A stretch of DNA of 64,000 nucleotides, from positions 13,586 through 77,585 of the forward strand of contig JAZTYV010000027.1 of NCBI GenBank assembly GCA_045637145.1, given 5' to 3'. The stretch comes from Clostridia bacterium (GTDB taxonomy: Bacteria > Bacillota > Clostridia > UMGS1810). The notes under the pieces were generated by a model that was not told the origin of the DNA, did not search any database, and saw only the letters and a program-made list of their open reading frames with translations. The position numbers were made by a program, and so were the translations under genes. The first letter of the stretch is position 1, and each line of letters starts with the position of its first letter. Positions 27,771-61,109 of the stretch are shown in pieces.

Positions 27771-27775
27771 TTGTT

Positions 27776-28672: not shown

Positions 28673-28684
28673 GGGGTTATAAAT

Positions 28685-32235: not shown

Positions 32236-32272
32236 GTACATAGAGTAAATTATAATGGAAAGGAAGAGTTTT

Positions 32273-36283: not shown

Positions 36284-37162
36284 ATGAAGATTAAAAAATC
36301 ATTTGGTGAACATGTATTTGACATTTCACTCTATCTCATAACTCTTATAGCAATGTTCCTTTGCCTCTATCCGCTCTGGTATGTTTTGGTGGCATCGTTT
36401 TCCAACGGTAAACTTGTAGCACAGGGTGAGGTTACTTTCTGGATTAAGGACTTCAACTTCGATGCATACAAAAAGGCTTTTGCAACACCGTATATCGGTT
36501 CGTCATACCTCATGACACTTTACTATTCTGTTTTCGGTGTTATCTTAAGCATGGGTCTTACAATGCTTGGTGCGTATCCGCTTTCCAAAAAGCGTCTTCG
36601 CGGCAGAAAGTTCTTCAACATCATGATAACTGTTACAATGTGGTTTGCAGCAGGTCTTTTGCCTACATACATCACATTCAGAACATATGGCCTTTTAGAC
36701 ACAACCCTTGGTGTTCTTCTTCATGGTGCCATATCGCCTTTCTACCTTATTATAATGCGTAATGGATTTGAGGGCGTTCCCGATGCTCTCGAAGAGTCAA
36801 TGCGATTGGACGGTGCCTCAGATATTCAGATTTTCTGGCATGTATACATACCGCTTAGTATTCCGACAATTATGACTCTTACACTTTACTACTTTGTTGC
36901 CAGATGGAACACATACTTCTGGCCTATGGTTATCTTAACAGACGAAAGATTGGTTCCGCTTCAGGTTATATTAAAGAAGCTTGTCGTAGATATGAATGTA
37001 TCTGCCGAAAACCTTGCAACCAGAGATGTGGCATCCACAATCTCTCAGGAAACAATGGTATTTTCTACCATCATCATAGCAGTTGTTCCTATGCTTATTC
37101 TTTATCCGTTCATACAGAGGTTCTTTGTTAAGGGTATTACAGTAGGTGCTGTAAAGGGTTAA
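36284..37162 (+). CDS. Carbohydrate ABC transporter permease (LplC/MalG-like)
   Basis: This is a polytopic membrane protein with an EAA loop (ESMRLDGASDIQIFWHVYIPLSIP). Confidence 0.9.
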   Translation: MKIKKSFGEHVFDISLYLITLIAMFLCLYPLWYVLVASFSNGKLVAQGEVTFWIKDFNFDAYKKAFATPYIGSSYLMTLYYSVFGVILSMGLTMLGAYPLSKKRLRGRKFFNIMITVTMWFAAGLLPTYITFRTYGLLDTTLGVLLHGAISPFYLIIMRNGFEGVPDALEESMRLDGASDIQIFWHVYIPLSIPTIMTLTLYYFVARWNTYFWPMVILTDERLVPLQVILKKLVVDMNVSAENLATRDVASTISQETMVFSTIIIAVVPMLILYPFIQRFFVKGITVGAVKG

Positions 37163-38995: not shown

Positions 38996-40606
38996 ATGAA
39001 ATTAAACAAAGTAATTTCGCTTGCACTTGTATTTGCTATGCTCATCTCTGCTATGTGCTTTACAACAGCAAGCGCAGATGACATTTATACTGTGAGTGAT
39101 ATCACTATTTCTAGTCGTGGATATTGTACAGTTTCTGCCTTGTCAGCAAAACCTGGTGCATATCATGTGGCTTATAGAAGTGGCGATGGTAAACTTGCAG
39201 GTGTTAGATTTGGTACAGAAAACATACAGCTTGATGCAAATTGTAAAGCAAATACAATTTTAAGATATTCTATGGATGTTGAGTTTCTTCATGGAATAAA
39301 CAATACACAAATTCACGCTGTAACTACAGGCGGTACTTTTGCCAGTGAAACAGGAGCTAGTTTAACTGATGGAGCAAAGGGTCAGATAGATGTTGTTCTA
39401 GACCTCAGTGGTGGGTCATTTTGGGCAAATTTCCATGATGACGCCACTAACACAGACACAGTAATCAGACACAAAGGTTATAGTGGCTTAATTAGCAGTA
39501 TTACAAAGGACCCGGCCCCTGTACTTACAGCTGTTGAACTTCAGATGGGTTCTACAGGGTTAAGCACAGCCGATATCCCTCTTTATGAATTAAGCAATGT
39601 TAAAAGATATCAATATGCTGCCGGCGTAACTTTAGCCGACGTTCGGGCACATATAGCAGATGAAAATTTCTTTAATAGGCCTGTTTCTGGCAACCTCAAC
39701 GCTATGGCTAGATACAACAACCACACTGTAACAGGTTCAAATGGTAGCTATGTATCTACCGGTTCCTTTGCTGCATATGATGTTATGAGCAATGCTCCCG
39801 GTCAGGCAATTTTCCTTAACCTTCCTTCAAATGTAGATTTCAACAGTGATAATAAGTATCTTGTGTACAAGTGCTCGTTTAGCTTAAATGATGAATGTGC
39901 AGATAGTATTGAATTAGGTTTAACTTACTCTACAGCAAACAATACGGAAGACCCGGCTAAAAATAATGGCGGCCCCTCAGTTGCAAATCTTGCTACAAAT
40001 GCAATTACAATGCGTAGCGGACACACCTATGACCTCAATGTAATATTTGACTTAGTTAACAAGACATATAACACATACTTAGATGGTCAGCTTATTGGTA
40101 GCGGTGCTGTTAACTCATCTGTTACAACAATGAGAACAATCCGTTTGTGGTACACACACAGAAATCCTTCAGGTGCTAGCTACAACATGCCCTACACAGC
40201 AACATACAAGATTTATCCCGGTACTTCAACATTTACTTTATCTGATGTTGTTGCTGCAGAAGTAGGTCAGGTTGTTACTGGACCTGTTATTTCCGAACTC
40301 TACTGGAACGGTGGCGTTAACGAAGGCGACGAAGAGTACCTCAATTTGGTTACTTATGAGCCAATCCCCGAAGGATACAAGCTCTTCATTGCTGTATACG
40401 ATGAAGCTGATACCGAAGGTAGCGAAACCTTAATCACTGCATTTCCTATCGATAGCACAACCGAGTACACAAACCACAATAATGGTACAACAAAGTACAC
40501 TGCTGCTATTCCCGGTGTTAAGGTTCCCAACGTTAAGTTCTTTATTTGGGATGCAAACTACAATCCTTTAGACGCTGCTCGTACAGTTCGTTATTTCCAC
40601 AAATAA
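38996..40606 (+). CDS. Secreted protein built from the same non-catalytic modules as the C-terminus of the next gene (LamG/jelly-roll-like, inferred)
   Basis: The signal peptide is MKLNKVISLALVFAMLISAMCFTTASA. Three modules align by eye with lyase-1 C-terminal modules: LYELSNVKRYQYAAGVTLADVRAHIADE vs LFEVSNIKQYIYSYGTELATVQGHLASE; HTYDLNVIFDLVNKTYNTYLDGQLIG vs VEYDLKIIVDIGDKTAYSYVDNCLVN; VKFFIWDANYNPL vs VRIFVWDNQISPI. Confidence 0.55.
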   Translation: MKLNKVISLALVFAMLISAMCFTTASADDIYTVSDITISSRGYCTVSALSAKPGAYHVAYRSGDGKLAGVRFGTENIQLDANCKANTILRYSMDVEFLHGINNTQIHAVTTGGTFASETGASLTDGAKGQIDVVLDLSGGSFWANFHDDATNTDTVIRHKGYSGLISSITKDPAPVLTAVELQMGSTGLSTADIPLYELSNVKRYQYAAGVTLADVRAHIADENFFNRPVSGNLNAMARYNNHTVTGSNGSYVSTGSFAAYDVMSNAPGQAIFLNLPSNVDFNSDNKYLVYKCSFSLNDECADSIELGLTYSTANNTEDPAKNNGGPSVANLATNAITMRSGHTYDLNVIFDLVNKTYNTYLDGQLIGSGAVNSSVTTMRTIRLWYTHRNPSGASYNMPYTATYKIYPGTSTFTLSDVVAAEVGQVVTGPVISELYWNGGVNEGDEEYLNLVTYEPIPEGYKLFIAVYDEADTEGSETLITAFPIDSTTEYTNHNNGTTKYTAAIPGVKVPNVKFFIWDANYNPLDAARTVRYFHK

Positions 40607-40632
40607 TATTAATTTAAATGGTTTTTCCCCAA

Positions 40633-40662
40633 GGGTAATGCAATGGTTTCATTGCATTACCC
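40633..40662 (+). terminator. 12-bp perfect stem-loop after the 536-aa gene (no U-tract)
   Basis: GGGTAATGCAAT (40633-40644), loop GGTTTC, then ATTGCATTACCC (40651-40662). Confidence 0.4.
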
Positions 40663-40876
40663 CGACTGGGGTAATCCTACGAGTTTAACTCATAGACTTT
40701 TGATTAAATTTTTGTTTGTGTTTTTGGTTTGTTGCAAAAAGCTGCAACAAGTCAAAACCATGTGCAAAACACAAAGATTTACCATTGGGTGCAGCTTGCA
40801 AGTAAGGCTTCATCATAAACTGCACACAAAAGATATTGTTTTCAATACATTTTTTACTACACAGGAGCGTGGTTCA

Positions 40877-43800
40877 ATGAAAAAGAAAAGCACATTATTA
40901 CTGGCAGTATTTTTGTTTGTTTTTGCCGTATCCGTTGTCTACCTTGCAGATTGTCCTGCATTGGCAGCCGTTCCCGAGCTTTCGCAAAAGGGCGCTGTTA
41001 TAGAAGCTGAAAGCATGACCTATAGCAGCAATATGACAAAAGCATTTAGCACTTCCGCATCCGGTTGGTATAACCTCAAGGTAAACAACGGACTTAGCGA
41101 CATCAATACTCCTCCTGCATCTACCACCTCAGGAGATATAGAATACGAGTTCAAAGCCACCGAGGATTGCCTCTACATCATATGGGTTAGGGCATATGCA
41201 TCGGGTGCCAGCTCTGACTCCTGCTATGTTGCCATAGACAACTACACCCCCTATGTATCGCAGGCAATTACTACTCACGGAGAGTATATGTGGAAGCGTC
41301 TTGAAGTCAGCATAGAAGCCAAGGCGGGTGAGACCTACAAGTTTAAGTTCCACCGCAGAGAAGGCTCACTTCAGGTAGACCAGTTCATCATTACAGGTAT
41401 CATTGGCTACGAGCCGTCAGGAAACTCCAAGGTGTCGAGTCTTCCCGATACAAACGATATTGCGCTTCCCGATATATACAACGACCCCGCGTACAATCCT
41501 CCTGCAGATGAACACCCCAGAGTTTATTTTACAGATGACGACATCGCAGAGCTTATAGTAAACCTCAACCATTCGTCAAATGCTCCCTTCAAGGAAATTT
41601 TTGACTCCTATGTGGAAGAAACCAATGTAGACATAGGCGCTGAGTATAACTTGACAGCTCTCGACAAAATAGAATGTAAGGCGTACTACTACGCACTCTA
41701 CAAAGACGAAACCGTGGGCAGACAGGCAATAGACCTTGCTCTTCAAACCATGACAGACTGGCCGTTTTTAAGCTATGGTGAACTAAACACCCGTTTAAAC
41801 GGCATGCTCATATCTACATGGTCCGAGGTCTATGACTGGTGCTACGACCTCCTCACCGAATCCGAAAAACAACAGTTCATAAAACGCTCCATGACCAGTG
41901 CATCGGTTATGGAAAACGGCTGGCCCCCCTCCAAGCAGGAGGCAATTACAGGCCATGGAGCCGAAGCCCAGCTTTTAAGAGTCATCATGTCTTTTGCCAT
42001 TGCTGTCTATGACGAAAGACCGGACATATGGCAGTATGTAGGTGGAAGATTCTACGATGAGTTTGTTCCTCCGAGACTCTTCTTCTACAAGGCAGGCATG
42101 CACATTCAGGGCACAAGCTACGGTGTGTACAGAAACATATGGGATCTCCACGCATACAAGCTTATCACAGGCATGGGTGTTCCCGAGCCGTATCCTGCAG
42201 AGGAAGTTGCGGGTATGGATGCAAGCCGTCTCATATACCTAAGAAGACCGGACGGCAACCTCACCTTAGACGGCGACACACCAAGTTTGTATACAGTTCC
42301 CATGACCTACGGTTATGCGGCACAGGCTGCCGTGCTTTTGGCTTCATCTGTAGGCAACGACCCTTACCTTAAGGATGAGTATGTAAGGGCAACCTTTACC
42401 GCAGACAAAGACGGTTTAACCAGAAAACGCGGAGAAGGTGACGAATCAACTATAGTAAATCACCTTATGTTCTCCGACCCTGACCTTGAAAGACAGTCCA
42501 TAGCCAACCTCCCGCTGTCCAAATACTTTGGAAGCCCCATGGGTGTTATGGCGGCAAGAACCGGCTGGGGAGACGGTGTTCAGTCGAATGCTGTCGTTGC
42601 CGAGATGAAGATAGGTGAGTACTATGTAGGCGGACATCAGATGCCCGCTGCAGGACACTTTTCAATCTACTACAAGGGTCCTCTTACCAATCAGGGCGGT
42701 GTGTACGACATCTTCAACTCACCTGCATTCAATCATTACAATCACAAAACCACAGCAAGCAACTGCATACTGGTCTACGACCCCAACGAACCCGCAGAAA
42801 ACTTTATGTGGGGCGAAAATGACGGCGGACAGAAGCTCGACCCTGTAAGCTTAAATGCTGCAAATGGTGGAACCTGGACCCCCGATGAAGAATACCACAG
42901 GGCAGAGGTACAAGGTCACGAAATCGATCCTGCAGACCCTATTGCTCCAGACTATACATATCTAAAAGGTGATATTGCCAAATACTACAGTGACAAAATT
43001 ACAGACTACAAACGCTCCATGATGTTCTTAAATCTCAAGGACTCTGCCGTTCCTGCGGCTATGGTAGTGTTTGACAAATTGTCTGTCAAAGACCCCTCCT
43101 TTAAGAAAACATGGGTACTTCACGGACAGACATCTCCCGTCATAGACGGTGCAAGAACAGTGTGGGGAAGCAGCCCCTATGTCAATTCTCTCGGCGAACG
43201 CTATACCGGCAAGATGGTACACGACATCGTTCTTCCTGACCAGAGCAAGCTTACAAAAACTGTTGTAGGCGGTGAAGAAGAGGGCTGGAACATCATAAAC
43301 GGTGTTAATGTCCCCGGTAACACCCAAAACGGCAAAGACAGAGAGGAAAACACATACAGACTTGAGCTTTCGCCCACAGAAAACAACTCCACCGAGCTTT
43401 TCTTAAATGTAATTCAGGTTACAGATGAGTCCAATGAGGCTTATCTCAATGTAACCAAGGTAGAAAACGACAAGTTCGTAGGCGTACAGCTTGCAGACAG
43501 AGTTGTACTTTTTGCAAAGAGCGGAAACAGAGAGTCCTCGGGCATCGAGTTTACCACCACAGGTACAGGCACACTCAAGTACACCGTGTGCGATGTACAA
43601 AGCGGTACATACTCCGTTACAGCAGCAGGGCAGACTCTTACTGCTGTTGTTACCGAAGAGGGCGGAGTTCTCTCGTTCGAAGCTCCAGCAGGCTCGGTAA
43701 GTGCAGTACGCACTTCATCTCAGGTTCCCGAAACCGAAGTTCAGCCTGTAGAACTTGGAGACAAAGTATCATACTATGTCAAGGTAAATAATCAGCTTGT

Positions 43801-46156
43801 CAATATGCCTGTTGACGCAGAGCTTGCAGACGGCACACTTATGTTTCCCGTTAAAAACCTTGCAGTTAAGATGGGTCTTAACGAGAACACCGAATTCGAA
43901 AGAACAATATACTCTCACGCTTCACAAAAGATAGAAGTGCAGATTACACCTTCCTCCAATATAATCATAGTTGACGGCAAAGAAGTTGCAATGCAAAAGC
44001 CTGCATATGTAAAAGACGGCTATCTCATGGTAGACATCAAAACCTTTGCCGAGGCCTTCAACTTTGTATATCATTGGGATGACTGGTCCGAGACAGCATA
44101 TCTCGTATCCAACCCAAAGCCCGCAAAGGAAGAGCTTGTATATACTGTAAATACTCCTGTTATAACAAATCAGATTTCCAGTATGACAATAGAGGAAAAT
44201 GCAGATAGACCGGGCACCTACAGTGTGTACCACCTTGGAAGCAATCCCGCAATGTACACAGCTTTTGCTCTTGTAGGCGACCCTGTACAGCTCGATTTCA
44301 AGGGAACAGATGCAAAATATCCGTTCTCACGAAAGACAATAGTGCGCTACTCTGCCGAAATAGAGTCTTTTGTGGATTCCACAGTGTTCTATCTGTACAC
44401 CGATTTCTCAGACGGAAACACTGCATGGCGTAATGCAGAAACACAAAAACCTGCCAAAAATCAGAAAATCAAGCTGGATGTTGTGGTAGACTTAAGCAAT
44501 CTGTATGTTCGCTATTACATAGACAATGTATTGATAAAAGCCATGCCCTTTACTGCGGCAACAGACATTACCTCGCTTAGCTTAAACGGTATCCGCGTAC
44601 AGCTTGGCGATGCCAACACCACCACATCGGGTACAAAGCTTTTTGAAGTAAGCAACATAAAGCAGTACATATACTCCTACGGCACAGAGCTTGCCACGGT
44701 TCAGGGGCACCTTGCTTCCGAGCCTACCGTTACTTCTCTTACACCCGTAGCACAGGATTCAAGCAGATGGACAATTTCAAGTGCAGGAAACGGTGTGTGG
44801 AATGTTACAGCAAAGCGCACAGGCTACACCAACGGAGGTTTCTATATTCCGTTTGATGTAAATATGACAGACGGTGTAACATCAGGCTTCTATCGTGTAT
44901 CTGCAACCATTACACCGAAAACCAGTCTCTACGATACTTCAAATGCAGTGTTCAATGCACTCTATACCGTTGATGGCACAAATGCATGGCAGTACTATTT
45001 CAATTCCAACATTCACTCGGGCAGACCAAACTATCTCACCAAATATGCCCCTGTTAAGTTTGACATGTTTGTAGACAAGAGCAACAATATGGTGTACTAC
45101 TACTTAAACGGTCGCCAGGTTGCATCCAACACATATAATGCACAGGCGCAAGGTTCTGAGGTTATATTAAAGAACATGGGCATATATGTTGTGGCATATG
45201 GCATAGAAGCAGGTGATTTGGCTTTCCAGATGAGCAATGTCAAAAAGTATACCTACTCTGCATTGGCAACCAGGCAGAGTGTAATAAATGACATTCTCTC
45301 TGAAACTCAGGGTGTTTCCAAGGCAAGCCTTACCTATACAAAACGAAGCGACCATGTTACATTTACAACTACCGCAGGTGAGGGATTAAAGGTTGTTTCC
45401 GCAGACGGAAACGCCACATTCAACTTCTGGATGAACCTTCCTGAAAGCATAAACTTTGCCTCATCCGATTACAAGTATCTGGTACTGCAAAACACCTTAA
45501 AGCACAATGTACCTGCATCTTCATTAGAGCTTGTTACACAGCTTGGCAAGGATGCCACAGATACCAGAGTCGGCGGTTCCAACATTGCAATGCATCAGGG
45601 CGTTGAGTACGATTTAAAGATTATTGTAGACATCGGAGACAAAACAGCCTACTCATATGTAGACAATTGCCTTGTAAACACAATAGATTTGTCAGGCTTT
45701 ACCGAGCTTAGAAGAATGCTTATCTACCTCGATGAGAGAACAGGTGACGGCATTTCGGCAGGCGAAGTAGATATGACGCTTTTCGATTACAATGCAGTGT
45801 ACTATCCTTTGGATTACACAGGCGGCATAGACGATGTAATTGCCCTGGAAATCGGCACCGACATCGAAGATTTCTATGTAAAGCGTGCTTACTACAAATA
45901 CAACAACGGCTCCCAAAGGTATGATGCATATTTCAATACAAGCATCAACATACCCGAGGACTACAGCGTGTATTTGGTTTCATATACAGTAGATGTTAAC
46001 GGTACGGAAACTTTGATTAATTCCACCCAGCTTAGTGGAGGAAAAGACTTTTCCGTACAACTTCCAAGAGAGTTTGACAGAGTAAGAATATTTGTGTGGG
46101 ACAATCAGATTTCGCCCATAAGCAAATCCTTTGACCTTGCACAATTTGCAAACTGA
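40877..46156 (+). CDS. Giant secreted multi-module protein with heparinase II/III-type (putative polysaccharide lyase) core
   Basis: The ATG at 40877 lies 8 nt after ACAGGAG and gives the signal peptide MKKKSTLLLAVFLFVFAVSVVYLADCPALAA. Approximate module order is as follows.
- A CBM-like beta-sandwich (40990-41398).
- An alpha-toroid plus heparinase II/III-like region (~41490-43520; PADEHPRVYFT, GHGAEAQ, GGHQMPAAGHFSIYYKGPLTNQ).
- A copper-amine-oxidase-N-like module (~43740-44110; DGTLMFPVKNLAVKMGL, DGYLMVDIKTFAEAFNF).
- Three LamG-like modules and a roughly 100-aa terminal module. Confidence 0.7.
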   Translation: MKKKSTLLLAVFLFVFAVSVVYLADCPALAAVPELSQKGAVIEAESMTYSSNMTKAFSTSASGWYNLKVNNGLSDINTPPASTTSGDIEYEFKATEDCLYIIWVRAYASGASSDSCYVAIDNYTPYVSQAITTHGEYMWKRLEVSIEAKAGETYKFKFHRREGSLQVDQFIITGIIGYEPSGNSKVSSLPDTNDIALPDIYNDPAYNPPADEHPRVYFTDDDIAELIVNLNHSSNAPFKEIFDSYVEETNVDIGAEYNLTALDKIECKAYYYALYKDETVGRQAIDLALQTMTDWPFLSYGELNTRLNGMLISTWSEVYDWCYDLLTESEKQQFIKRSMTSASVMENGWPPSKQEAITGHGAEAQLLRVIMSFAIAVYDERPDIWQYVGGRFYDEFVPPRLFFYKAGMHIQGTSYGVYRNIWDLHAYKLITGMGVPEPYPAEEVAGMDASRLIYLRRPDGNLTLDGDTPSLYTVPMTYGYAAQAAVLLASSVGNDPYLKDEYVRATFTADKDGLTRKRGEGDESTIVNHLMFSDPDLERQSIANLPLSKYFGSPMGVMAARTGWGDGVQSNAVVAEMKIGEYYVGGHQMPAAGHFSIYYKGPLTNQGGVYDIFNSPAFNHYNHKTTASNCILVYDPNEPAENFMWGENDGGQKLDPVSLNAANGGTWTPDEEYHRAEVQGHEIDPADPIAPDYTYLKGDIAKYYSDKITDYKRSMMFLNLKDSAVPAAMVVFDKLSVKDPSFKKTWVLHGQTSPVIDGARTVWGSSPYVNSLGERYTGKMVHDIVLPDQSKLTKTVVGGEEEGWNIINGVNVPGNTQNGKDREENTYRLELSPTENNSTELFLNVIQVTDESNEAYLNVTKVENDKFVGVQLADRVVLFAKSGNRESSGIEFTTTGTGTLKYTVCDVQSGTYSVTAAGQTLTAVVTEEGGVLSFEAPAGSVSAVRTSSQVPETEVQPVELGDKVSYYVKVNNQLVNMPVDAELADGTLMFPVKNLAVKMGLNENTEFERTIYSHASQKIEVQITPSSNIIIVDGKEVAMQKPAYVKDGYLMVDIKTFAEAFNFVYHWDDWSETAYLVSNPKPAKEELVYTVNTPVITNQISSMTIEENADRPGTYSVYHLGSNPAMYTAFALVGDPVQLDFKGTDAKYPFSRKTIVRYSAEIESFVDSTVFYLYTDFSDGNTAWRNAETQKPAKNQKIKLDVVVDLSNLYVRYYIDNVLIKAMPFTAATDITSLSLNGIRVQLGDANTTTSGTKLFEVSNIKQYIYSYGTELATVQGHLASEPTVTSLTPVAQDSSRWTISSAGNGVWNVTAKRTGYTNGGFYIPFDVNMTDGVTSGFYRVSATITPKTSLYDTSNAVFNALYTVDGTNAWQYYFNSNIHSGRPNYLTKYAPVKFDMFVDKSNNMVYYYLNGRQVASNTYNAQAQGSEVILKNMGIYVVAYGIEAGDLAFQMSNVKKYTYSALATRQSVINDILSETQGVSKASLTYTKRSDHVTFTTTAGEGLKVVSADGNATFNFWMNLPESINFASSDYKYLVLQNTLKHNVPASSLELVTQLGKDATDTRVGGSNIAMHQGVEYDLKIIVDIGDKTAYSYVDNCLVNTIDLSGFTELRRMLIYLDERTGDGISAGEVDMTLFDYNAVYYPLDYTGGIDDVIALEIGTDIEDFYVKRAYYKYNNGSQRYDAYFNTSINIPEDYSVYLVSYTVDVNGTETLINSTQLSGGKDFSVQLPREFDRVRIFVWDNQISPISKSFDLAQFAN

Positions 46157-46346
46157 CACAATTGTTATTCTTAGGCACACAGGGGAGATGTGCTCGCCTT
46201 GTGCTTAGAGATATTTGTAATAGATTACTGTAATGCAAATTTCTCTTAAATACCCTTTGAAATCTTTATATTTCTACATGGATATAGAGCTTAAATAAAA
46301 AACCAACACACATTGGACAAAACAAATTTAGTATGGGAGTGATACA

Positions 46347-51020: not shown

Positions 51021-51045
51021 ACACACATACGAAAGGGGAATATAA

Positions 51046-52725: not shown

Positions 52726-52740
52726 GGAGGATAGGTGACT

Positions 52741-54405
52741 ATGAAAAAACTAATATCAATTTTAATTGCATCTTTGCTTATGCTTCAGTGTGTGGCTTTT
52801 GCCGATTATTCACTGGGAACTTCAGAGGATGAAGTCGTTATTTCAGGTCAGGCCAATCCTTTTAAAATGGTATCCTTTGTACTTTTAAATAATGAAGCAT
52901 TCACAGCAGATTCTATAGACGGCATAGTGGATGAATACATTGCCGACATAGAAGATGGAAATATTCTTACAACAGAAAAGATTTTCTACTTTGATGCTGT
53001 AAGAGCAGACGCAAACGGCGATTGGCAAGTAATTGTCGATATGGCCGGCATTGAAACCAAGGACCTCATTCTCTTCGAAAGTGAAGACAAGTACGAACCC
53101 GTATTCTTCGCTTCTGTAGACTACAGAGCAGGTATCCTTTCAAACCTCATTGAAAAAGCATTTGTAGAGGATGACAACGCATCATTAAAGAACGCTATCA
53201 CAACCGATATTTCATATATCGCAGATAGCTGGGATCTCTACGGTAAGCTTACAAACAAATTGTTTGTTGCAAACTTTGTAGATGACACCATTAAGACCTT
53301 TGATCCCATAACAGCAGGCTCTGCAGAGCTCGCAGTGTTAAAGGCTAAGATGGACAAGGCAATCCTCCTTCAGGCAATTAGCGAAGGTAAGATGTCCAAC
53401 TTCGACAAGGCTTTCTATTTTGACTATGATACTTCCCTTAAGGCTACAATGTCATCTGCCGGTCAGACAAAGACACTTGAACTCTTAAAGGGTGGCGACT
53501 ACAGCGTAGAGGATGACTACATCGCTGCTGCACAAGAAGTATTAAAGCTCCAGAATTTCAACTACAACACCAACCAAAATGGTAACAACCTTGTAGAAGT
53601 TTTAGAAACCTTAGGTCTTGACCTTGATGACTTTGACGACCTTGGCAATAGCGATCAGGCTAAGGCTGCAAAGAGTCTTGCTAAGAAGAAGAGCGAAGAC
53701 TACGAAGAAGCTCAGGATAACCTTGACGATATCGTAGAAGATATTTTATATGGTAAAGGCGGTTCCAAAGGCGGCTTTAGTGATGTTTCATCACTTCCTT
53801 TCACCCCCAATCCTAAAGAAAGCATCTCCGACGAAAACATTCAGGGTCAGAAGTACATCTACACAGATTCTCACCTTGCTCCTTGGAGTGCAGATGCTGT
53901 AGTTTACCTCTCCGATAAAAGCATTGTTGCAGGCTATGAAGATGGTTCCTTCAAGCCCAACAACTCCATCACAAGAGCAGAATTCACAAAACTCGTTGTA
54001 GAAGCCTTCTATGGCATCACAGCGTACGAATACACAACAGCATTCTCCGATGTACCTCAGAATGCTTGGTATGCTCCTTATGTAAACAAAGCATACGACA
54101 ATGGTATCGTGGCAGGTACTTCTGCTGGCAAATTCAACCCCAACGATACAATCACAAGAGAAGATATGGCAGTTATCCTATACAACGCTGCTATTAAGCA
54201 CGGTTTAATTGCTACAGCTTCTCCCAACAAATTATTTGCAGATGAAGCTTTAATTAGCGCATATGCAAAAGATGCAGTTTACACACTTAAGGCACTTAAC
54301 ATTGTAAGTGGTGTAGGCACAGGCGAATTTGAGCCCAAGTCCAACGCTACAAGAGCAGCTGCTTGCCAGATGCTATACTCACTTATGGTTAAGACATCCA
54401 AATAA
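52741..54405 (+). CDS. Secreted protein with three C-terminal SLH (S-layer homology) repeats
   Basis: The signal peptide is MKKLISILIASLLMLQCVAFA. The SLH repeats lie at ~53860-54390: YTDSHLAPWSADAVVYLSDKSIVAGYEDGSFKPNNSITRAEFTKLV; FSDVPQNAWYAPYVNKAYDNGIVAGTSAGKFNPNDTITREDMAVIL; FADEALISAYAKDAVYTLKALNIVSGVGTGEFEPKSNATRAAACQML. The N-terminal ~370 aa are unassigned. The ORF-track GTG at 52735 is the alternative start. Confidence 0.8.
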   Translation: MKKLISILIASLLMLQCVAFADYSLGTSEDEVVISGQANPFKMVSFVLLNNEAFTADSIDGIVDEYIADIEDGNILTTEKIFYFDAVRADANGDWQVIVDMAGIETKDLILFESEDKYEPVFFASVDYRAGILSNLIEKAFVEDDNASLKNAITTDISYIADSWDLYGKLTNKLFVANFVDDTIKTFDPITAGSAELAVLKAKMDKAILLQAISEGKMSNFDKAFYFDYDTSLKATMSSAGQTKTLELLKGGDYSVEDDYIAAAQEVLKLQNFNYNTNQNGNNLVEVLETLGLDLDDFDDLGNSDQAKAAKSLAKKKSEDYEEAQDNLDDIVEDILYGKGGSKGGFSDVSSLPFTPNPKESISDENIQGQKYIYTDSHLAPWSADAVVYLSDKSIVAGYEDGSFKPNNSITRAEFTKLVVEAFYGITAYEYTTAFSDVPQNAWYAPYVNKAYDNGIVAGTSAGKFNPNDTITREDMAVILYNAAIKHGLIATASPNKLFADEALISAYAKDAVYTLKALNIVSGVGTGEFEPKSNATRAAACQMLYSLMVKTSK

Positions 54406-54425
54406 GAACAGGAGGATAAAATAAT

Positions 54426-57176
54426 ATGAATAAAAAAATTGTTTCGATTATAACAGCCCTTCTGTTGATTTTGCAGTGCTTCTCAGCATTTGCTGCCGAT
54501 ACTTCGGCAGCAGATGTGGATGCAATTCACATTGAAGGATTTTTAAAGAGCATTGGCATTGTACCCGAGGGCACAGACTCTACAGGTGTTACCACCAGAG
54601 GTCAGGCAGCTCAGTACATTGCAGCAATTCTAAATGACAAGTACACTACACCCGCTTACAGAGGCATATTTGCCGATGTTTCCGCAGACCACCCCAATGC
54701 AATAGCTATTGAAACTCTTGCAGACTTAGGTGTAGTTCGCGGTGATGGCAACTTTAACTTCTATCCCGACAGCTACCTCACATACGATCAGGCTGCATGC
54801 ATCTTTGCCTATATGCTTGGTTACTCCGCAGCAGGTACGCTTCCCGCACAGGCACACCTCTATGTGTCCCGTCATGGCATTTGGGATGGCGTAGTTGCAG
54901 AATATGACTATGTTTCCACTCAGGACCTTTTTGCTATGATTTACAATATACTCCACTGTGAAGTTCTCGAGCAGGTAAACTTTGGCAATAAGGAAGAGTA
55001 CAAGTTCAGTGAAGAAGACCTTCTCTACAAAAACTTTGAAGTTATTAAGACCTATGGTGTTGTTGTAAAGAACGATATTTCCTACCTTTGGTCTTCTGCC
55101 GATGCTGACGATGCTACTTTAGTAGTAGAGCAGGAAGACGGCACCGACATTACAGTAGACATTACAGGCAAGAATGTAGATACCAGAGATATCCTCGGTA
55201 AGTACATCACCTTGTACTATGTCTACAACGATGCTACACGCAAGAATGACTATGTATACCACATAGAAGAAGATACCGACAAGATTTTCTCCTTGTCACT
55301 CTACGATCTTGACTTAAACAAGTCATCTATCGACAACGGCAAAATTTACTATTATGCTGAAGATGGCGATGTTGAAGGAATTAACTTAGCTTCTGATTGC
55401 AGCCTCATTTACAACAACGCTGCATACAAGAGCCACACAATTGATTTTGCTACATTAACCAACAAGGTTGGTTTTGTAGAACTCATTGACTACGATGGAA
55501 ACAAGAAGTATGATGTTATTAAGCTTACAGTATATGATACCTTTGTTGTTGGAAGCGTTGCAAAGACCTATTTGACATTACTTGATAGATACGATACTTC
55601 CAGCATCTTAAGCTACAATGCTGATGATTACGACAAGCTCTACATCGAAGATGTAAACGGTACACCTGTTGAAGCAACAACTATTCAGGAAGGTGATGTT
55701 CTTTCTGTAGCAAAGAGTGACACCTACACAGGTGAAAAGATTGTTACAATCGTTGTCTCCAAGGGCATCGTAAACGGTAAAATTACCGAATACGAAGACC
55801 TGGGATATGAGCGCTCCATTGTACTTGATGCTACATCCAAGTTCCGTCTTGCAGACAGAGCTTGCTCAACACTCAGCTACAAGATTGGTACAAATGTTGC
55901 AGTCTACATTGATGCATTTGATAATGCAGTATATGTAACAAACGACTATGGCAGAAATATGCAGTACGCTTTCGTATTTGGCGTTGCAAAGGATTCCGAA
56001 GCCTTCACTCGTGACGTTAAGGTTAAGATGATGCGCTTTGACGGCACATTCCATGTTGTAAGCCTTTGCGACAACGTTACGATAGACGGCAGAGTATACA
56101 AAGAGCAGTACAACGATGCATACGATCGCTTAATGCTTGCTAAGACAGACTTGGGTAGCGTAGGTTCTATTGAAGACGCATTCCTTATCCGCTACACCTT
56201 AGATGCAGCAGGAAAGATGAAAGTTATCGATACTCCCGAATCTGACCTCGGTGGTGACAAGGATAGCCTTCAAAAGATGATAGGCGGTAACTACCTTGTA
56301 GACCGTCAGGGAATAATTGGCCAGAAGGTTCCGATTAGCCCTGCAGCAAATGTAATAAACATTGCTACAAGAGATATGACAGATGTTGATTCCTACGACG
56401 AGCCCAATATGCTCTACATAACTCCCAGATCTATGTCCTTTGGTTCACTAAAGAGCTACAAGGTTGTTGCATATCGTTCTGACCTTCAGGCACCTTATGC
56501 AGATGTTGTTATCAACATCGCGGACACAATCCTCACAATGGATGAAGGCCTCTTCCTTATAGACACAGTTAAGCATGTATATGATGCAGAAAATGACGAC
56601 AAAATCTACAAGTTAGATGGCTTTGTAAACGGTGTTGCTAAGAGTTACTGGATTCCTGAAGAAGGTACCAACAAGCAGACAACAACAACAGGTGGTTTTG
56701 TTCTCACCGACGAGCTCAAAAATGCAGTTCGTGGTGACGTACTTCGTGTTGTAGTAGACCAGAGCAACAAGATTACAGCTTATGACTACATCTTCGACAG
56801 AACAGGTAATACAGATGTAGTAAATACACCTCTCTTCTCTTCCGAACTTGTGGACACGGCTACTAACTCCTATGGTATGTTCACAGGTTATGTAAAGACA
56901 CGTTATGAATCTGTTATCGATGTTGCACACCTCTACAACTATGGTGAAGTTCCTGCTCCCACAAATGACCTCTTCTCCGGTGTTAATGTTAAGAACTACA
57001 CCACTATGATTCCTGGCGGATTACAGATTATGATTGTAGATGATACAGAAAACAAGATTTTCATAGGTAATATGAATGATGTCCGCGATTTTGAACGTTT
57101 CGGCTCTGAAGCATCCTTCATCATTGCTAAATTCCGTACAAATGCTATGACAGATGTAATTATATACAACAAATAA
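54426..57176 (+). CDS. Secreted 916-aa protein with N-terminal SLH repeats and unassigned ~750-aa passenger
   Basis: The signal peptide is MNKKIVSIITALLLILQCFSAFA. SLH-like repeats lie at ~54500-54960. The clearest is FADVSADHPNAIAIETLADLGVVRGDGNFNFYPDSYLTYDQAACIFAYML, and the flanking repeats are degenerate. Confidence 0.7.
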   Translation: MNKKIVSIITALLLILQCFSAFAADTSAADVDAIHIEGFLKSIGIVPEGTDSTGVTTRGQAAQYIAAILNDKYTTPAYRGIFADVSADHPNAIAIETLADLGVVRGDGNFNFYPDSYLTYDQAACIFAYMLGYSAAGTLPAQAHLYVSRHGIWDGVVAEYDYVSTQDLFAMIYNILHCEVLEQVNFGNKEEYKFSEEDLLYKNFEVIKTYGVVVKNDISYLWSSADADDATLVVEQEDGTDITVDITGKNVDTRDILGKYITLYYVYNDATRKNDYVYHIEEDTDKIFSLSLYDLDLNKSSIDNGKIYYYAEDGDVEGINLASDCSLIYNNAAYKSHTIDFATLTNKVGFVELIDYDGNKKYDVIKLTVYDTFVVGSVAKTYLTLLDRYDTSSILSYNADDYDKLYIEDVNGTPVEATTIQEGDVLSVAKSDTYTGEKIVTIVVSKGIVNGKITEYEDLGYERSIVLDATSKFRLADRACSTLSYKIGTNVAVYIDAFDNAVYVTNDYGRNMQYAFVFGVAKDSEAFTRDVKVKMMRFDGTFHVVSLCDNVTIDGRVYKEQYNDAYDRLMLAKTDLGSVGSIEDAFLIRYTLDAAGKMKVIDTPESDLGGDKDSLQKMIGGNYLVDRQGIIGQKVPISPAANVINIATRDMTDVDSYDEPNMLYITPRSMSFGSLKSYKVVAYRSDLQAPYADVVINIADTILTMDEGLFLIDTVKHVYDAENDDKIYKLDGFVNGVAKSYWIPEEGTNKQTTTTGGFVLTDELKNAVRGDVLRVVVDQSNKITAYDYIFDRTGNTDVVNTPLFSSELVDTATNSYGMFTGYVKTRYESVIDVAHLYNYGEVPAPTNDLFSGVNVKNYTTMIPGGLQIMIVDDTENKIFIGNMNDVRDFERFGSEASFIIAKFRTNAMTDVIIYNK

Positions 57177-57198
57177 TTTTTTTCGTGGGGCTGGGCAC

Positions 57199-60100
57199 AT
57201 GAATATGCACACTTTACTTAAAAAAATTTCATCTATAATTATAGCAATTATTCTAACAGCGGTTACTTTTGTAACCGCTGTTGGTGCAAATAAAGTTTTG
57301 CCTGTATTTCAGGCAGGCACAGTATATGAAGCCGAACAGGCTTACATATACGAAGGCAAAATGGAAATACTAAACGATGGACTGGCTTCGGGCGGAACAG
57401 CTCTTAAGCCAAGAGGTGAATATCAGGCAACTGCTGCGGATGTAACAGGTCCCATGCTTGCATTTGATGTAAGCTCCGATATAGAGCGCCAAAATTGCAA
57501 GTTATCTGTAAAATACATCAGCAAAGCAGGTTCCACATCCTTCTTCTACCGCATCAACGGCGGTGCGTGGACATGCGTGTATCCCGCAAAAGCCACTGAG
57601 TATACCTGGTTTGAGGTGCCTTATGTAAGCATCAATGTTGGTGAAACTGCCACACGCGTAGAACTTGCTCAGCGTGTAGATGGAATAACAATAGACCAGA
57701 TTAAAATAAGCGAAGGAGAAGAAAACCTGCCGGTGTTTAATCTCGACACAGCATACGAAGCCGAACAGGCTCATGTATACGGCACCAATATGACTCTTGT
57801 AGATGATGGTGCGGCTTCGGGCGGCAAAGTTCTCAAAACAAGCGGTCAATATCAGGCAAAGGCTGCCGATGTAAAGGGACCAATGCTTGGTTTCTATGTA
57901 TATGCTCCGCAAGACCTCAATAATTGCAAATTGATGATTAGGTATATACACAAGGCAGGCAGTACATCTTTTTTCTATAAGATAGGTAATGCATCTTCTT
58001 GGACTGTAACTTATCCGCCAAAGCAAACAGAATATGTGTGGTACGAAGTTCCTTATTTAACTTTGTCCCTTTCCAAGGGAAACAACCTCATTAAGTTTGC
58101 TCAGCGTACCGGAGACTGGAAAGTAGACCAGATTAAAATTGTAGGCCCTGCAAAAGATTTCGCAGAGCCAAGCGTTACAGACGGAAATATTGTATATCCT
58201 CAAACCATGCAGGCAAACCGTGTTAACAATGTGCCCGCCTTTGAAGACGGCGACAACATTCTTTTCATAGGCGACTCCATTACCCATGGTGCATTAAGCG
58301 GTAAATATCTTGCATATCTTTCCGCATTCTATGCAGGAAGATTTCCGGATAAGAAGATTACATATCTAAACAAAGCCATCGGCGGAAATGACGCCGGTGA
58401 GGCTGTAATGAGATTTAACTATGACATCATAAACGAGCTTGATGCTCCTGCCAACAAAGCTGTTATCCTTATAGGTACAAATGACATGGAAATGTACAAC
58501 TATTATGATGGTACCGAGGATAATCCCGGCGAAAAGCTAAGAAGAGCAGACAACATCACTCGCTATGAAGCATATATGAGAACTCTTATTTCCAAACTTA
58601 GACAAAATGGAGTTGAAGATATAATCCTTATTTCTCCTCCGTTGTATGATGAGTGGGGAAGTATGAGTGCAGTTAATGCCAAGGACTTTAACAACATATC
58701 CCGAAAGGCTGCAGCATTACAGTACAAGCTCTCGCAGGAACTGGAGGATGTGTATTTCATAGATATCAATACACCGATGTATGCTGTAGATATTTATAAT
58801 AAATCCATAAAGGGCTTGGGCTTCAGACTTGCACCCGACCGTGTACATCCAAATGACGAAGCAAACTGGATTATTGCATACTCTATCCTAAAGGCACAAG
58901 GCATGGACAAGGATGTTGCAAATGTAAGCATAGATGCACAGTCTCAAACTGTTAATGCATATAATGCTGCTGTAACAAACCTTACAAGCACACAAAATGC
59001 TGTAACATATACATATTCACCAAACGCTCTGCCTATTGCTGCAGACAGCCTGTACAGAGGCGGAGATGAGCTTGTTCCTATTACAAATGAATTGAACAGA
59101 GAAATAATCAAAGTAACAGGTTTGGCAGATGGTGTATATGACATTAAACTAAACGGTAATGTTGTAATGCGTGCAACCAATGCTCAGCTTGAAGAAGGCA
59201 TAAATATTGCCGACAAGAAAAACAATCCCGGTCAGCAATCTGCTCTTAAGGCTCTTACCGCCGCATTGCAAAGAATAGAGCACGACACCGCGCACAGAAC
59301 ATTCCACTACAATCTGCTGATAACTGTTTCAGAATATGGTCTCAATTATTCCAGCAATGAAGCTCTTATAACTTCCGCACAAAAATATTCCAATGTAAGT
59401 TCAATTGCTGCTCTTCTTGAGCAGAAGGAAAACGAAGGCTCTGTTTTGGCTACAAGCAAGGCATTTGAAGATCAGGTTTATTCTGCAAGTGTTCCTGTAA
59501 GCTCAAATGTGGAGATATCACTCTCAGCAGACCAGACCGAACCCGGAGACATTACATACAGCTATGTTGATGTTACTTTTCCGCAAAACACTGTTTCCAT
59601 AATTCCGGACGACAAAACTCCCAGCATATCCGTTGACAGAATAGTTTTTGAAGACGAAAACGGCAATGAACTTACATCCTTGCCTCAGTCGGGCACAGTA
59701 ACAGCAAAGGCAATTCTCAGAAACAACACCTTAAGTGATGCATCTGCAACACTATGGATTGCTTCCTATACTGCAGATACTTTGGATGTTTCTGCATTTT
59801 CCGACACAGTTTCTGTTGCTCCCGGCAAAGAAACAACTGTTTCTGAATCTGTAACCATAACTCAGGCATCTGCTCTCCTTAAGGCAGGTGTTTGGGAAGC
59901 TGGAGACAGCGCAACACCTCTTGTGGCTTTGGCAGAGTATCCCTCTCAAAACTATGGCATCAAAGATGTATATGTAAACGGCAAAGAGCTTAGCTTTGAC
60001 CCGGAGGTTTACAACTACACATATATGCTTGCCACCGAGGAAACAAATGCTCCCATGGTAAGCGTTACTCCTGCAAATACCAATGCAGATATCAAGATTA

Positions 60101-60387
60101 CACAGGCTTCTTCCACAAAAGACAGTGCAGTTATAAAAGCAGGTGACAACACCTACAGAATATCATTTAAAATATCCGACCCTCATGTTACACAAGTTAA
60201 AATAAACAATGTTGTGTATGAGAAGTTTGTTCCCGATGCATATTACTACGAATTGCCAAAGGCAAGCATGGGAGAAGTAAGTGCGGTTGCAGGCTATGAT
60301 GTAGATGTAAGCATCACTCAGCCCACAGCTTCAAACCCCACAGCCATAATTACAACCGAGGCTATAAACGGCGAACAGAGAACATAA
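57199..60387 (+). CDS. Secreted 2x CBM-like + SGNH/GDSL hydrolase (putative carbohydrate esterase) + cadherin-like modules; apparently truncated by a frame change
   Basis: A signal/anchor sequence (ISSIIIAIILTAVTFVTAVGA) leads. Two CBM-like modules follow (57316-57712 and 57742-58146). The SGNH blocks are ILFIGDSITHG, NKAIGGNDAG, LIGTNDM and PDRVHPND. Two cadherin-like modules follow (VYVNGKELSFDPEVYNYTY...NTYRISFKI; VKINNVVYEKFVPDAYYYEL...). The stop falls inside the last strand of the second module. Confidence 0.75.
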   Translation: MNMHTLLKKISSIIIAIILTAVTFVTAVGANKVLPVFQAGTVYEAEQAYIYEGKMEILNDGLASGGTALKPRGEYQATAADVTGPMLAFDVSSDIERQNCKLSVKYISKAGSTSFFYRINGGAWTCVYPAKATEYTWFEVPYVSINVGETATRVELAQRVDGITIDQIKISEGEENLPVFNLDTAYEAEQAHVYGTNMTLVDDGAASGGKVLKTSGQYQAKAADVKGPMLGFYVYAPQDLNNCKLMIRYIHKAGSTSFFYKIGNASSWTVTYPPKQTEYVWYEVPYLTLSLSKGNNLIKFAQRTGDWKVDQIKIVGPAKDFAEPSVTDGNIVYPQTMQANRVNNVPAFEDGDNILFIGDSITHGALSGKYLAYLSAFYAGRFPDKKITYLNKAIGGNDAGEAVMRFNYDIINELDAPANKAVILIGTNDMEMYNYYDGTEDNPGEKLRRADNITRYEAYMRTLISKLRQNGVEDIILISPPLYDEWGSMSAVNAKDFNNISRKAAALQYKLSQELEDVYFIDINTPMYAVDIYNKSIKGLGFRLAPDRVHPNDEANWIIAYSILKAQGMDKDVANVSIDAQSQTVNAYNAAVTNLTSTQNAVTYTYSPNALPIAADSLYRGGDELVPITNELNREIIKVTGLADGVYDIKLNGNVVMRATNAQLEEGINIADKKNNPGQQSALKALTAALQRIEHDTAHRTFHYNLLITVSEYGLNYSSNEALITSAQKYSNVSSIAALLEQKENEGSVLATSKAFEDQVYSASVPVSSNVEISLSADQTEPGDITYSYVDVTFPQNTVSIIPDDKTPSISVDRIVFEDENGNELTSLPQSGTVTAKAILRNNTLSDASATLWIASYTADTLDVSAFSDTVSVAPGKETTVSESVTITQASALLKAGVWEAGDSATPLVALAEYPSQNYGIKDVYVNGKELSFDPEVYNYTYMLATEETNAPMVSVTPANTNADIKITQASSTKDSAVIKAGDNTYRISFKISDPHVTQVKINNVVYEKFVPDAYYYELPKASMGEVSAVAGYDVDVSITQPTASNPTAIITTEAINGEQRT

Positions 60388-60416
60388 CACTTAAGTTTAT
60401 AGACAGAGATGTAGGT

Positions 60417-61109
60417 GTGGTGTCAAATATTAAGCTAAATGGCTCTTTAGCTCCATCAACAGGATACAACCGTGTTGTAGCTGTACCTTCCAAGGGCGTT
60501 GAGCTGGTCAACTACTATGACCCCGATTTAACATTGGAGCAGATGTATGCTAATCTTTGCGATGACGAAGTATACGAAGATGAAGCATGTATGATGTCCA
60601 GTACCAGCTACCGTACTCCTGTTGGCATGTGGGATCGTGCTGAAAACAACACATATGGATACTGCATACAGTTCTTATATGCTGATGTGGGAGGTTCCTT
60701 CCTTATAAACGATAATGTTACAAGATTAATAAAACCCGACAATGAATTTGTATCGGGCTCAGACCCCACAAAAATATATGAATTTACTATTTCCAAGCCT
60801 GCTACCGTATACATTATACCTTATGCAAGAAGTACTTATATTGAAAGCTTAAATGCAGGCTGGACATATGCTTGTGACACAACTATGTACACCCCGCATA
60901 TTCCTTCATCCATCGAACTTATGCTCGATAGAGGAGTAAAGGTTAAAATACCCACAGGTGCTACAACCTATTATACACCTTTCCGCGAAGGTCACGCGTA
61001 CTACAAGCACTACAATGCAGGCGAAACGGCACAGATTCCCTCACACTCCGCTACATCATCCACCAGAAGCCGCGCTATATTCATTGTGTGGGATGAGGTT
61101 CAGGAATAA
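60417..61109 (+). CDS. 230-aa ORF with no leader and a GTG start; probably the detached C-terminal domain of the preceding gene
   Basis: Its frame is open back to 60369 and overlaps the last 19 nt of the upstream gene in another frame. It has no signal peptide and no good SD. It is homologous to the C-terminal domain of the 559-aa protein, where that domain follows two cadherin-like modules. Confidence 0.5.
   Translation: MVSNIKLNGSLAPSTGYNRVVAVPSKGVELVNYYDPDLTLEQMYANLCDDEVYEDEACMMSSTSYRTPVGMWDRAENNTYGYCIQFLYADVGGSFLINDNVTRLIKPDNEFVSGSDPTKIYEFTISKPATVYIIPYARSTYIESLNAGWTYACDTTMYTPHIPSSIELMLDRGVKVKIPTGATTYYTPFREGHAYYKHYNAGETAQIPSHSATSSTRSRAIFIVWDEVQE

Follow-up and report, generated by a model that had tools for sequence, protein, structure and literature searches.

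A probable polysaccharide-utilisation locus of uncultured Clostridia that combines PL21 lyases with separate S-layer homology proteins

Introduction

The retention of polysaccharide-degrading enzymes at the surface of Gram-positive anaerobes is understood mainly through cellulosomes, sortase-anchored enzymes and fusions between enzymes and S-layer homology (SLH) domains. Here, we describe a block of secreted multi-module proteins from a Clostridia bacterium (NCBI GenBank assembly GCA_045637145.1, contig JAZTYV010000027.1, positions 13,586–77,585 of the forward strand) which, judged by its sequence, differs from all three arrangements. The 64,000 nucleotides analysed are referred to as the window, and the block occupies positions 38996–61109 of it. 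Its eight + strand open reading frames (ORFs) are numbered O1 to O8 in order, and the homologous loci compared with the window are labelled L001 to L025. The block encodes two secreted lyases of polysaccharide lyase family 21 (PL21; O2 and O3), an SGNH esterase (O7+O8) and several non-catalytic secreted proteins, two of which (O5 and O6) carry SLH domains. Together with genes upstream of it, the block probably constitutes a chromosomal Gram-positive polysaccharide-utilisation locus (gpPUL) of uncultured, spore-forming Clostridia, in which secreted PL21 lyases would cut the polymer, an importer would take up the fragments and the SLH pair would serve at the cell surface. It represents conserved "dark matter" that yields testable hypotheses, and not an established new mechanism.

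Closest described systems

Heparinase II of Pedobacter heparinus (HepB; PDB 2FUQ and 3E80) belongs to PL21, and its ~730-residue three-domain core and catalytic residues are like those of O2 and O3. The window cores differ from HepB in scoring below the equivalog cut-off, in the replacement of residues that we take to be zinc ligands, and in the lack of a sulfatase among the annotated genes of the locus. They also sit in secreted Gram-positive proteins of 1,557–1,759 aa that contain five to seven extra modules. To our knowledge, PL21 has very few characterised members, all of which act on heparin-type substrates, and diverged multi-module lyases from Clostridia could widen the known specificity of the family.

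The gpPUL concept, reportedly put forward by Sheridan and colleagues in 2016, is said to join a regulator, an ABC importer and extracellular carbohydrate-active enzymes (CAZymes) in Firmicutes. A regulator, a transporter and an extracellular polysaccharide-degrading enzyme are likewise co-located in the window, as a transmembrane AraC protein, a solute-binding protein (SBP) with two permeases and, co-oriented with these, the secreted depolymerases. Unlike in the Firmicutes gpPULs, the enzymes are PL21 lyases and not glycoside hydrolases (GHs), and they are accompanied by a conserved non-catalytic surface trio (O4, O5 and O6).

SLH domains anchor glycanases in Caldicellulosiruptor and Paenibacillus sp. 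JDR-2 (XynA1), as well as the scaffoldins SdbA and OlpB in Clostridium thermocellum. In these systems, as proposed for the present locus, SLH triples place polysaccharide-degrading machinery on the Gram-positive wall. The window differs from the former in having its SLH domains on separate non-catalytic proteins instead of on the enzymes, and from the latter in having neither cohesin nor dockerin. The classical enzyme–SLH fusion is seen in the distant loci L017, L019 and L021, beside a relative of O6.

The SusD/E/F-like surface glycan-binding proteins of Bacteroidota offer a functional analogy only. They are also non-catalytic, locus-encoded, surface-attached and found with different enzyme families, but have no sequence or fold relation to O4, O5 and O6, whose glycan binding is putative and whose anchoring is by SLH domains and not by lipid. 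Sap/EA1 of Bacillus anthracis and SpaA of Paenibacillus alvei possess an N-terminal three-SLH domain like that of O6. The ~720-aa body of O6, however, has no detectable similarity to their assembly domains, and O6 is linked to CAZymes in its locus. Literature searches on PL21 with SLH, on gpPULs with SLH and on Firmicutes heparinase II with SLH returned no description of such a locus or of an O6 family.

Organization of the block

The genes of the block and their modules are as follows.

38996–40606, + strand: O1, secreted non-catalytic protein, 536 aa; signal peptide, two modules of ~190 aa (M190; 39074–39661 and 39662–40291), ~100-aa C-terminal module
40877–46156, + strand: O2, secreted PL21 lyase, 1,759 aa (PDB, NCBIfam and Pfam); signal peptide, one ~135-aa N-terminal module, PL21 core (residues 209–941, nt 41501–43699), Cu_amine_oxidN1 (nt ~43781–44101), three M190 modules (44123–45856), ~100-aa C-terminal module
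46347–51020, + strand: O3, secreted PL21 lyase, 1,557 aa (Pfam and NCBIfam); signal peptide, two ~135-aa N-terminal modules, PL21 core (residues 381–1127, nt 47487–49727), Cu_amine_oxidN1 (nt 49818–50120), two discoidin (F5/8 type C) modules (nt ~50214–51017)
51046–52725, + strand: O4, secreted non-catalytic protein, 559 aa; Ig-like module (residues 28–132), two beta-sandwich modules, domain X215 (residues ~345–559, nt 52078–52722)
52735–54405, + strand: O5, secreted protein, 556 aa; ~370-aa N-terminal part without assignment, C-terminal SLH triple (nt ~53857–54402)
54426–57176, + strand: O6, secreted protein, 916 aa; N-terminal SLH triple (residues 25–178, nt 54498–54959), ~720-aa body (nt 55011–57173)
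57199–61109, + strand: O7+O8, one SGNH esterase gene split by a 1-nt frameshift (Pfam, PDB and L001 homologue); in O7 (57199–60387), signal peptide, two ~135-aa N-terminal modules, SGNH esterase with helical extension (residues 344–704, nt 58228–59310), Ig-like module (residues 813–914) and beta-sandwich modules; in O8 (60417–61109), a distant X215-type C-terminal domain

The original prediction, made from the letters of the window alone, described eight co-directional ORFs of about 7,170 codons. The eight + strand ORFs and their size stand (7,175 codons when O2 starts at 40877), but the block consists of seven genes, since O7 and O8 are a single frameshifted gene. Translation of O2 from 40877 (MKKKSTLLL, the start of a signal peptide) gives an exact match to a 1,759-aa entry in a public protein collection. 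The mechanically defined ORF opens at 40643, 78 codons upstream of the signal-peptide start; this extension (40643–40876) is probably untranslated, which leaves an intergenic region of 270 nt after O1. The gap between O2 and O3 is 190 nt, and the other four measure 9–25 nt. Signal peptides, in which a K/R-rich start leads through a hydrophobic run to an A-x-A-like end, were read from the translations at the N-termini of all seven genes, as predicted; O8 has none of its own.

The description of the block as made largely of unassigned modules also holds: ~2,630 of the 7,175 residues have an assignment, and ~63% are without a Pfam or PDB-sequence match. Pfam searches of all eight ORFs left many modules in no described family, ten sub-segments of the block proteins gave no match at E ≤ 1 beyond SLH, and no GH family was matched in any ORF, in agreement with the predicted absence of a GH signature. 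Promoter and terminator scans gave counts at or below shuffle expectation. No Rfam match at the gathering threshold (riboswitch, tRNA or leader) was found in the whole 64 kb.

The PL21 lyases

Two heparinase II/III-type cores had been recognised from sequence, and Pfam, PDB and NCBIfam searches agree on both. Residues 209–941 of O2 align to residues 21–745 of heparinase II (PDB 3E80; E = 4e-111) over 733 residues that include all three domains, and 2FUQ was also matched. HepII_C and Cu_amine_oxidN1 are Pfam matches in both O2 and O3, the latter corresponding to the copper amine oxidase N-like modules predicted in the two giant proteins, while the two predicted discoidin modules are both F5/8 type C Pfam matches in O3. 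The two lyases share 53.6% identity across 1,094 aa. The NCBIfam HepB model (NF045571) gives 508 bits for O2 and 448 bits for O3; both matches are near full length but fall under the 600-bit equivalog cut-off. By these scores, O2 and O3 are PL21 family members but not demonstrable iso-functional orthologues of HepB.

The active-site residues of heparinase II are His202, Tyr257 and His406 (PMC10656541). Addition of 23 to the chain index in the 3E80 alignment reproduces the published numbers. In this register, O2 keeps His202/Glu205 (GHGAE for GHASE), Tyr257 (GTSY for GMSY) and His406 (GGHQ for NHQH), and O3 shows the same catalytic motifs.

The esterase

O7 matches Lipase_GDSL_2 in Pfam with 55.2 bits (gathering cut-off, 32.9), and its residues 344–704 match a GDSL enzyme in the PDB (7BR2; E = 3e-32) as well as the acetyl-xylan esterase Axe2 (E = 7e-7). 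All four SGNH blocks (GDS, G, GxND and DxxH) were read in O7 as FIGDSITHG, AIGGND, IGTNDM and DRVHPN. The predicted SGNH esterase is thus upheld by Pfam, PDB-sequence and motif matches alike.

The 1,165-aa homologue in locus L001 spans both ORFs, with residues 172–1059 of O7 corresponding to its residues 28–925 and residues 2–227 of O8 to its residues 941–1167. At the junction, the homologue reads TEAHYGETLKYTVKFIDRDIG; in the window, one frame ends in TEAINGEQRT* and the next frame continues with ENITLKFIDRDVG. The 1-nt indel lies near 60379–60387, where one added A (AGAACA to AGAAACA) restores GEQRNITLKFIDRDVG, matching the L001 homologue. The frameshift could reflect either genuine decay or a mistake in sequencing or assembly. 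The O8 domain is related to X215 by hhalign (91.6%).

The SLH proteins and their anchoring

Both proteins predicted to carry SLH triplets do so. In O5, the triple is recovered as three Pfam stretches (E = 1.7e-37). Pfam finds one repeat in O6, where a PDB profile search covers, over residues 25–178, the whole triples of Sap (three stretches) and SpaA. Deeper profiles of O6 against PDB and Pfam had SLH as their sole match and left the body unmatched; the N-terminal part of O5 has no Pfam match (E ≤ 1). An OmpM-type outer-membrane anchor was considered for O6 and rejected in view of the triple SLH domain and of a cotJB gene in the window, which points to a monoderm spore-former. The annotated ORFs of the window suggest no gene for CsaB or a pyruvylated wall polymer, although none was specifically searched for.

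Other anchoring devices are absent, as the original prediction had it. The eight ORFs contain no Dockerin or Cohesin Pfam match and no dockerin loop pattern by motif search, and both a regular-expression search and reading of the C-termini were negative for LPXTG. The prediction went on to propose that dedicated SLH proteins organise the lyases and the esterase at the cell surface. In a specific form of this model, O5 and O6 would be a non-cohesin scaffold on the S-layer or wall, on which the anchorless lyases, the esterase and O1/O4 dock, with Cu_amine_oxidN1, the ~100-aa Ig-like module or M190 as the equivalent of a dockerin. We consider this doubtful. Such a scaffold would account for enzymes that are all secreted yet have no SLH, LPXTG or dockerin, and candidate docking modules are shared by some of the proteins (the Ig-like module by O4 and O7, Cu_amine_oxidN1 by both lyases). 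Neither O5 nor O6, however, shows a repeated module of the cohesin type, and O3 has neither Ig-like nor M190 modules, so that no single module is common to all the cargo.

A conserved cassette in related Clostridia

The comparison of gene neighbourhoods in related Clostridia supports the SLH pair as a dedicated part of the locus. The order PL21 (mostly two genes), O4-like, O5, O6 recurs in at least eight lineages (L001, L005, L006, L007, L011, L012, L013 and L025), in which the cassette proteins have 24–50% identity to those of the window, with O4, O5 and O6 falling to 24–33%. A genome scan found relatives confined to metagenome-assembled genomes (MAGs) of uncultured Clostridia, namely Clostridiaceae AS10tlH2TH_150, Clostridiales Firm_18, an Oscillospiraceae MAG and several "Clostridia bacterium" bins. 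The loci are organised as follows.

L001 (also L002–L004): full core, then an intact esterase
L005 / L008: full core
L006: full core
L007: full core
L025: full core
L011 (9444–13655): N-terminal part of O5 separate; SLH triple joined to the O6 body
L012 (18664–21732): O5 and O6 fused, at least 1,023 aa (cut by the locus end)
L013 (3257–7633): O5 and O6 fused, 1,459 aa

The fused proteins carry two SLH triples back to back in mid-protein, and the natural fusion in L012 and L013 is direct evidence for O5 and O6 acting as a single unit. The O5/O6 genes of L011, L012 and L013 are preceded by one for a 434-aa protein like the N-terminal part of O4. L012 also has the same three importer genes ahead of the cassette as the window (43–59% identity).

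This conservation bears on another explanation, namely that O5 and O6 are S-layer or envelope proteins of the ordinary kind, without a role in polysaccharide use, that lie beside a lyase operon by chance or shared ancestry. The architecture of O6, with its N-terminal SLH triple and a body of ~700 aa, does resemble that of Sap/EA1, and two distant relatives (L018 and L022) lie outside CAZyme loci. Synteny is nevertheless kept while identity drops to 24–30%, the genes are only 9–22 nt apart, five of seven distant O6 relatives lie beside extracellular CAZymes of four different families, and X215 is found only together with the cassette. We regard this explanation as highly improbable, and the SLH pair as dedicated to the locus.

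The wider O6 family

When 1.84 billion representatives were searched exhaustively by phmmer, the O6 body matched 501 of them at E ≤ 1e-3, of which 153 pass E ≤ 1e-10 and 27 pass E ≤ 1e-30. The matched proteins are nearly all 850–950 aa long, with the body starting near residue 200. SLH was found in 36 of 40 aligned members, and no other Pfam family recurs among them (three one-off weak matches). A metagenome scan with a four-sequence alignment of the O6 body returned no relative. The neighbourhoods of seven distant relatives contain the following.

L017: PL8–discoidin–SLH lyase, Big_5–SLH protein, two permeases, SBP, 739-aa AraC
L018: not in a CAZyme locus
L019: AraC, aBig_2 protein, 1,797-aa Hepar_II_III–SLH enzyme, GH20
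L020: CBM4_9 protein, CBM4_9–GH141 enzyme, full-length O5 homologue, GDSL+CE4 esterase
L021: GDSL, Big_4, Pectate_lyase_2, 1,774-aa Big_4–SLH protein
L022: not in a CAZyme locus
L023: AraC, 1,845-aa protein with four CBM4_9 modules and a C-terminal SLH-like region (blast)

As far as these gene neighbourhoods tell, proteins of the O6 type are a recurrent component of clostridial loci that break down polysaccharides outside the cell, alongside at least five enzyme families. A recurring layout is a protein with C-terminal SLH encoded next to O6, whose own SLH triple is N-terminal: in L017, L019, L020, L021 and L023, the O6 relative is adjacent to or near a protein with a C-terminal SLH triple. 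O6 is thus not simply an anchor for anchorless enzymes, as its distant relatives adjoin enzymes with a C-terminal SLH of their own. The family comprises hundreds of 50%-identity clusters and occurs with PL8, Pectate_lyase_2, Hepar_II_III and GH141 as well; if its members bind glycans or dock enzymes, the family would mark clostridial polysaccharide loci in general and be a functional part of them.

The distribution of O5 is of interest for the docking scaffold. Among about a dozen loci, full-length O5 was found only where the enzymes have no SLH (the PL21 cassettes and the GH141 locus L020), and no O5 where a large protein has its own. L017, L019, L021 and L023 belong to the latter kind. This pattern, together with the strict synteny of O5/O6 with the enzymes, keeps the docking idea alive. 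The occurrence of O6 relatives with self-anchoring enzymes speaks against it, and the O5 correlation draws on about a dozen loci.

Accessory modules

O1 has no Pfam, NCBIfam or PDB match, and O4 none in Pfam or NCBIfam. The AF2 model of O4 (pLDDT 82) has beta-sandwich modules at residues 135–210 and 218–345. A Foldseek search with the whole model retrieved generic Ig-like arrays only (BbgIII, C5a peptidase, transglutaminase and Sap/EA1) and was uninformative. The Ig-like module of O4 recurs in O7 (HMM, E = 1e-12). Of the cadherin-like modules in the original prediction, what remains are these beta-sandwiches and a precomputed PF12733 match in one homologue (P0013), as no HMM match was obtained in the window proteins. 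The LamG-like modules similarly persist as M190, which occurs twice in O1 and three times in O2 with copies related at phmmer E values of 1e-10 to 1e-2; the LamG label goes back to the motif LDVVVDLSN..Y..Y.DN, and M190 has no Pfam match at E ≤ 1 and no PDB match at E ≤ 10. O1 and O2 also have the ~100-aa C-terminal module in common (E = 3e-4). The mutually alignable ~135-aa N-terminal modules (one copy in O2 and two each in O3 and O7) have no match in Pfam (E ≤ 1) or among PDB-sequence profiles. Their "EAE...ASGG" look may resemble that of CBM6/35.

X215 is the most distinctive of the accessory domains. Modelled alone by AF2, it is a beta-sandwich with short helices (pLDDT 76, pTM 0.80). Foldseek against the PDB found no fold match (best E = 0.03, TM 0.33), the PDB-sequence profile search no match (best E = 0.15), and Pfam nothing at E ≤ 1 for the first member and only single stray matches above 0.01 for others. 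Structure prediction and Foldseek, as run on O4 and X215, thus place X215 in no characterised fold. The O4 family has 20 detectable relatives in 5.8 billion clustered proteins, across which the X215 motifs QPRL, NND, DR.W, F.ADT.G and F.A.E are invariant. Up to four tandem copies of X215 are present in a 2,443-aa PL21 protein of L012, and fusions to PL21 also occur in L016, L015 and L011. A metagenome scan recovered the domain at five loci, all in the same PL21 cassette. A catalytic role was considered and set aside, because tandem copies and fusion to different enzymes are more in keeping with an accessory or binding module. The X215 of O4 would accordingly behave like a carbohydrate-binding or accessory module. 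Together with M190, the ~135-aa N-terminal module and the O6 body, X215 is a concrete target for structural and binding work.

A bolder reading of these data is that O5/O6 and the preceding O4-type protein form a portable, hitherto undescribed surface module, in which the N-terminal domain of O5 is an adaptor that docks anchorless enzymes in the PL21 and GH141 loci (a cohesin- and dockerin-independent display), with X215 as a new family of carbohydrate-binding modules and with PL21 enzymes of non-heparin specificity. Taken as a whole, we consider this combination unlikely.

The substrate

The chemistry of PL21 points to a uronic-acid-containing substrate, and the presence of the esterase is the one indication that it is acetylated. 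Genes that follow the core in related loci add to this picture. A 2-hydroxyacid dehydrogenase and a xylose-isomerase-like TIM-barrel protein are encoded immediately 3′ of O6 in L005 (16754–17740 and 19751–20518), L006 (16208–17985) and L013 (7718–9534) and are absent from the window; they may be an isomerase/reductase pair for an unsaturated uronate product. Other genes after the core encode GH78 in L005, GH29, GH88 and GH94 in L006, and three GH3 enzymes in L007. GH88 is the family of unsaturated glucuronyl hydrolases, and its presence in L006 therefore supports unsaturated uronate products.

With heparinase II and HepB as their best PDB and NCBIfam matches, the lyases could be taken to define a glycosaminoglycan locus for heparin, heparan sulfate or heparosan. 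GH88 in L006 would suit such a locus, and discoidin (CBM32-like) modules fit the binding of host glycans. The cores, however, fall short of the HepB cut-off (508 and 448 against 600 bits), and no sulfatase was found among the annotated genes of the window or the related loci, not every gene of which was scanned. The accessory genes elsewhere include a GH78 rhamnosidase, a GH29 fucosidase, GH94 and GH3, and the record titles of the relatives, from which alone this is drawn, hint at MAGs from herbivore gut or digesters. A glycosaminoglycan locus is on balance very unlikely. The substrate is probably not sulfated heparin, and unsulfated heparosan-like polymers are possible. An acidic, probably acylated heteropolysaccharide of microbial or plant origin appears more likely.

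Regulator, importer and cytoplasmic enzymes

The original prediction placed an importer, two cytoplasmic enzymes and a membrane AraC sensor upstream of the block. The region does contain an AraC regulator with transmembrane (TM) segments, an SBP and two permeases, as well as two proteins that lack signal peptides.

29872–32085, − strand: transmembrane AraC regulator, 737 aa (Pfam HTH_18 and HTH_AraC, residues 655–733)
32255–33820, + strand: 521-aa protein without signal peptide; no Pfam, NCBIfam or PDB match
33817–35121, + strand: BNR/sialidase-like beta-propeller, 434 aa, without signal peptide (BNR_2; weak sialidase/GH93 matches)
35306–36268 and 36284–37162, + strand: ABC importer permeases (Pfam BPD_transp_1 twice)
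37461–38978, + strand: lipoprotein SBP, 505 aa (SBP_bac_1; lipobox-like LVASCFAGC read)

As read from its sequence, the regulator has an N-terminal TM segment, an outside domain of ~230 aa, a second TM segment and a cytoplasmic part that ends in the AraC helix-turn-helix. The 521-aa protein and the BNR propeller are candidate intracellular oligosaccharide-processing enzymes. By eye, the N-terminus of the former (GGGTDVTDELQAILDLAPECGGVHLVLDGAALV) is like the start of right-handed beta-helix enzymes of the "Pectate_lyase_3" type, and the last 4 nt of its gene are shared with the start of the propeller gene.

Further upstream, at 23946–29710, lies a second BNR propeller gene (− strand), followed by genes for a GntR/FCD regulator, an enolase-superfamily dehydratase, an M24-fold protein, a DHDPS-type aldolase and a Zn-dehydrogenase. 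This region resembles a set for sugar-acid (possibly deoxy-sugar-acid) catabolism and may serve the same locus.

Proposed function

The co-location of the AraC regulator, the ABC importer, the secreted PL21 lyases and the SGNH esterase, with GH88 in the related locus L006, agrees with the polysaccharide-utilisation system originally predicted. We propose that the membrane-spanning AraC regulator detects the extracellular substrate or fragments of it. The two secreted PL21 lyases, whose catalytic residues are conserved, would then cut a uronic-acid polysaccharide by beta-elimination, while the secreted SGNH esterase would remove acyl groups. O4, O5 and O6 would be three further non-catalytic secreted proteins of the unit, of which the O5/O6 wall pair most likely holds the polymer, the anchorless enzymes or both at the wall. 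Unsaturated oligosaccharides would be taken up by the adjacent ABC importer and presumably finished in the cytoplasm by the 521-aa protein, the BNR propeller, the enolase-superfamily dehydratase, the DHDPS-type aldolase and the Zn-dehydrogenase. That the SLH proteins are dedicated to this unit, as predicted, is supported by the PL21/O4/O5/O6 order kept in at least eight diverged lineages and by the fusion of O5 with O6 in two of them.

Several observations weigh against the proposal. The esterase gene is frameshifted in this genome, with its C-terminal domain cut off. At the positions of the heparinase II zinc ligands, which we take to be His408, Asp425 and His451, O2 has Met, Gln and Ser, and O3 has Thr, Gln and Ser. 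By Pfam and motif search, O2 and O3 have no recognisable anchor or docking module, and the lyases may therefore simply be released. The window contains no GH88/GH105-type gene. Lastly, the N-terminal part of O5, the O6 body, X215, M190 and the ~135-aa N-terminal modules match nothing that assigns a function.

Flanking regions

Downstream of the block, a DUF2130 gene is followed by cotJB (63259–63903), which marks the host as a spore-former. The first 23 kb of the window are housekeeping in content (dnaG, rpoD, ackA, der and plsY). A horizontal island was considered and rejected, given these housekeeping flanks and a GC content that is only slightly raised (0.42–0.48 against 0.38–0.43). The block is chromosomal and belongs to a spore-former. 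At 4462–6889, a LarA-type racemase gene adjoins a glycerate kinase gene.

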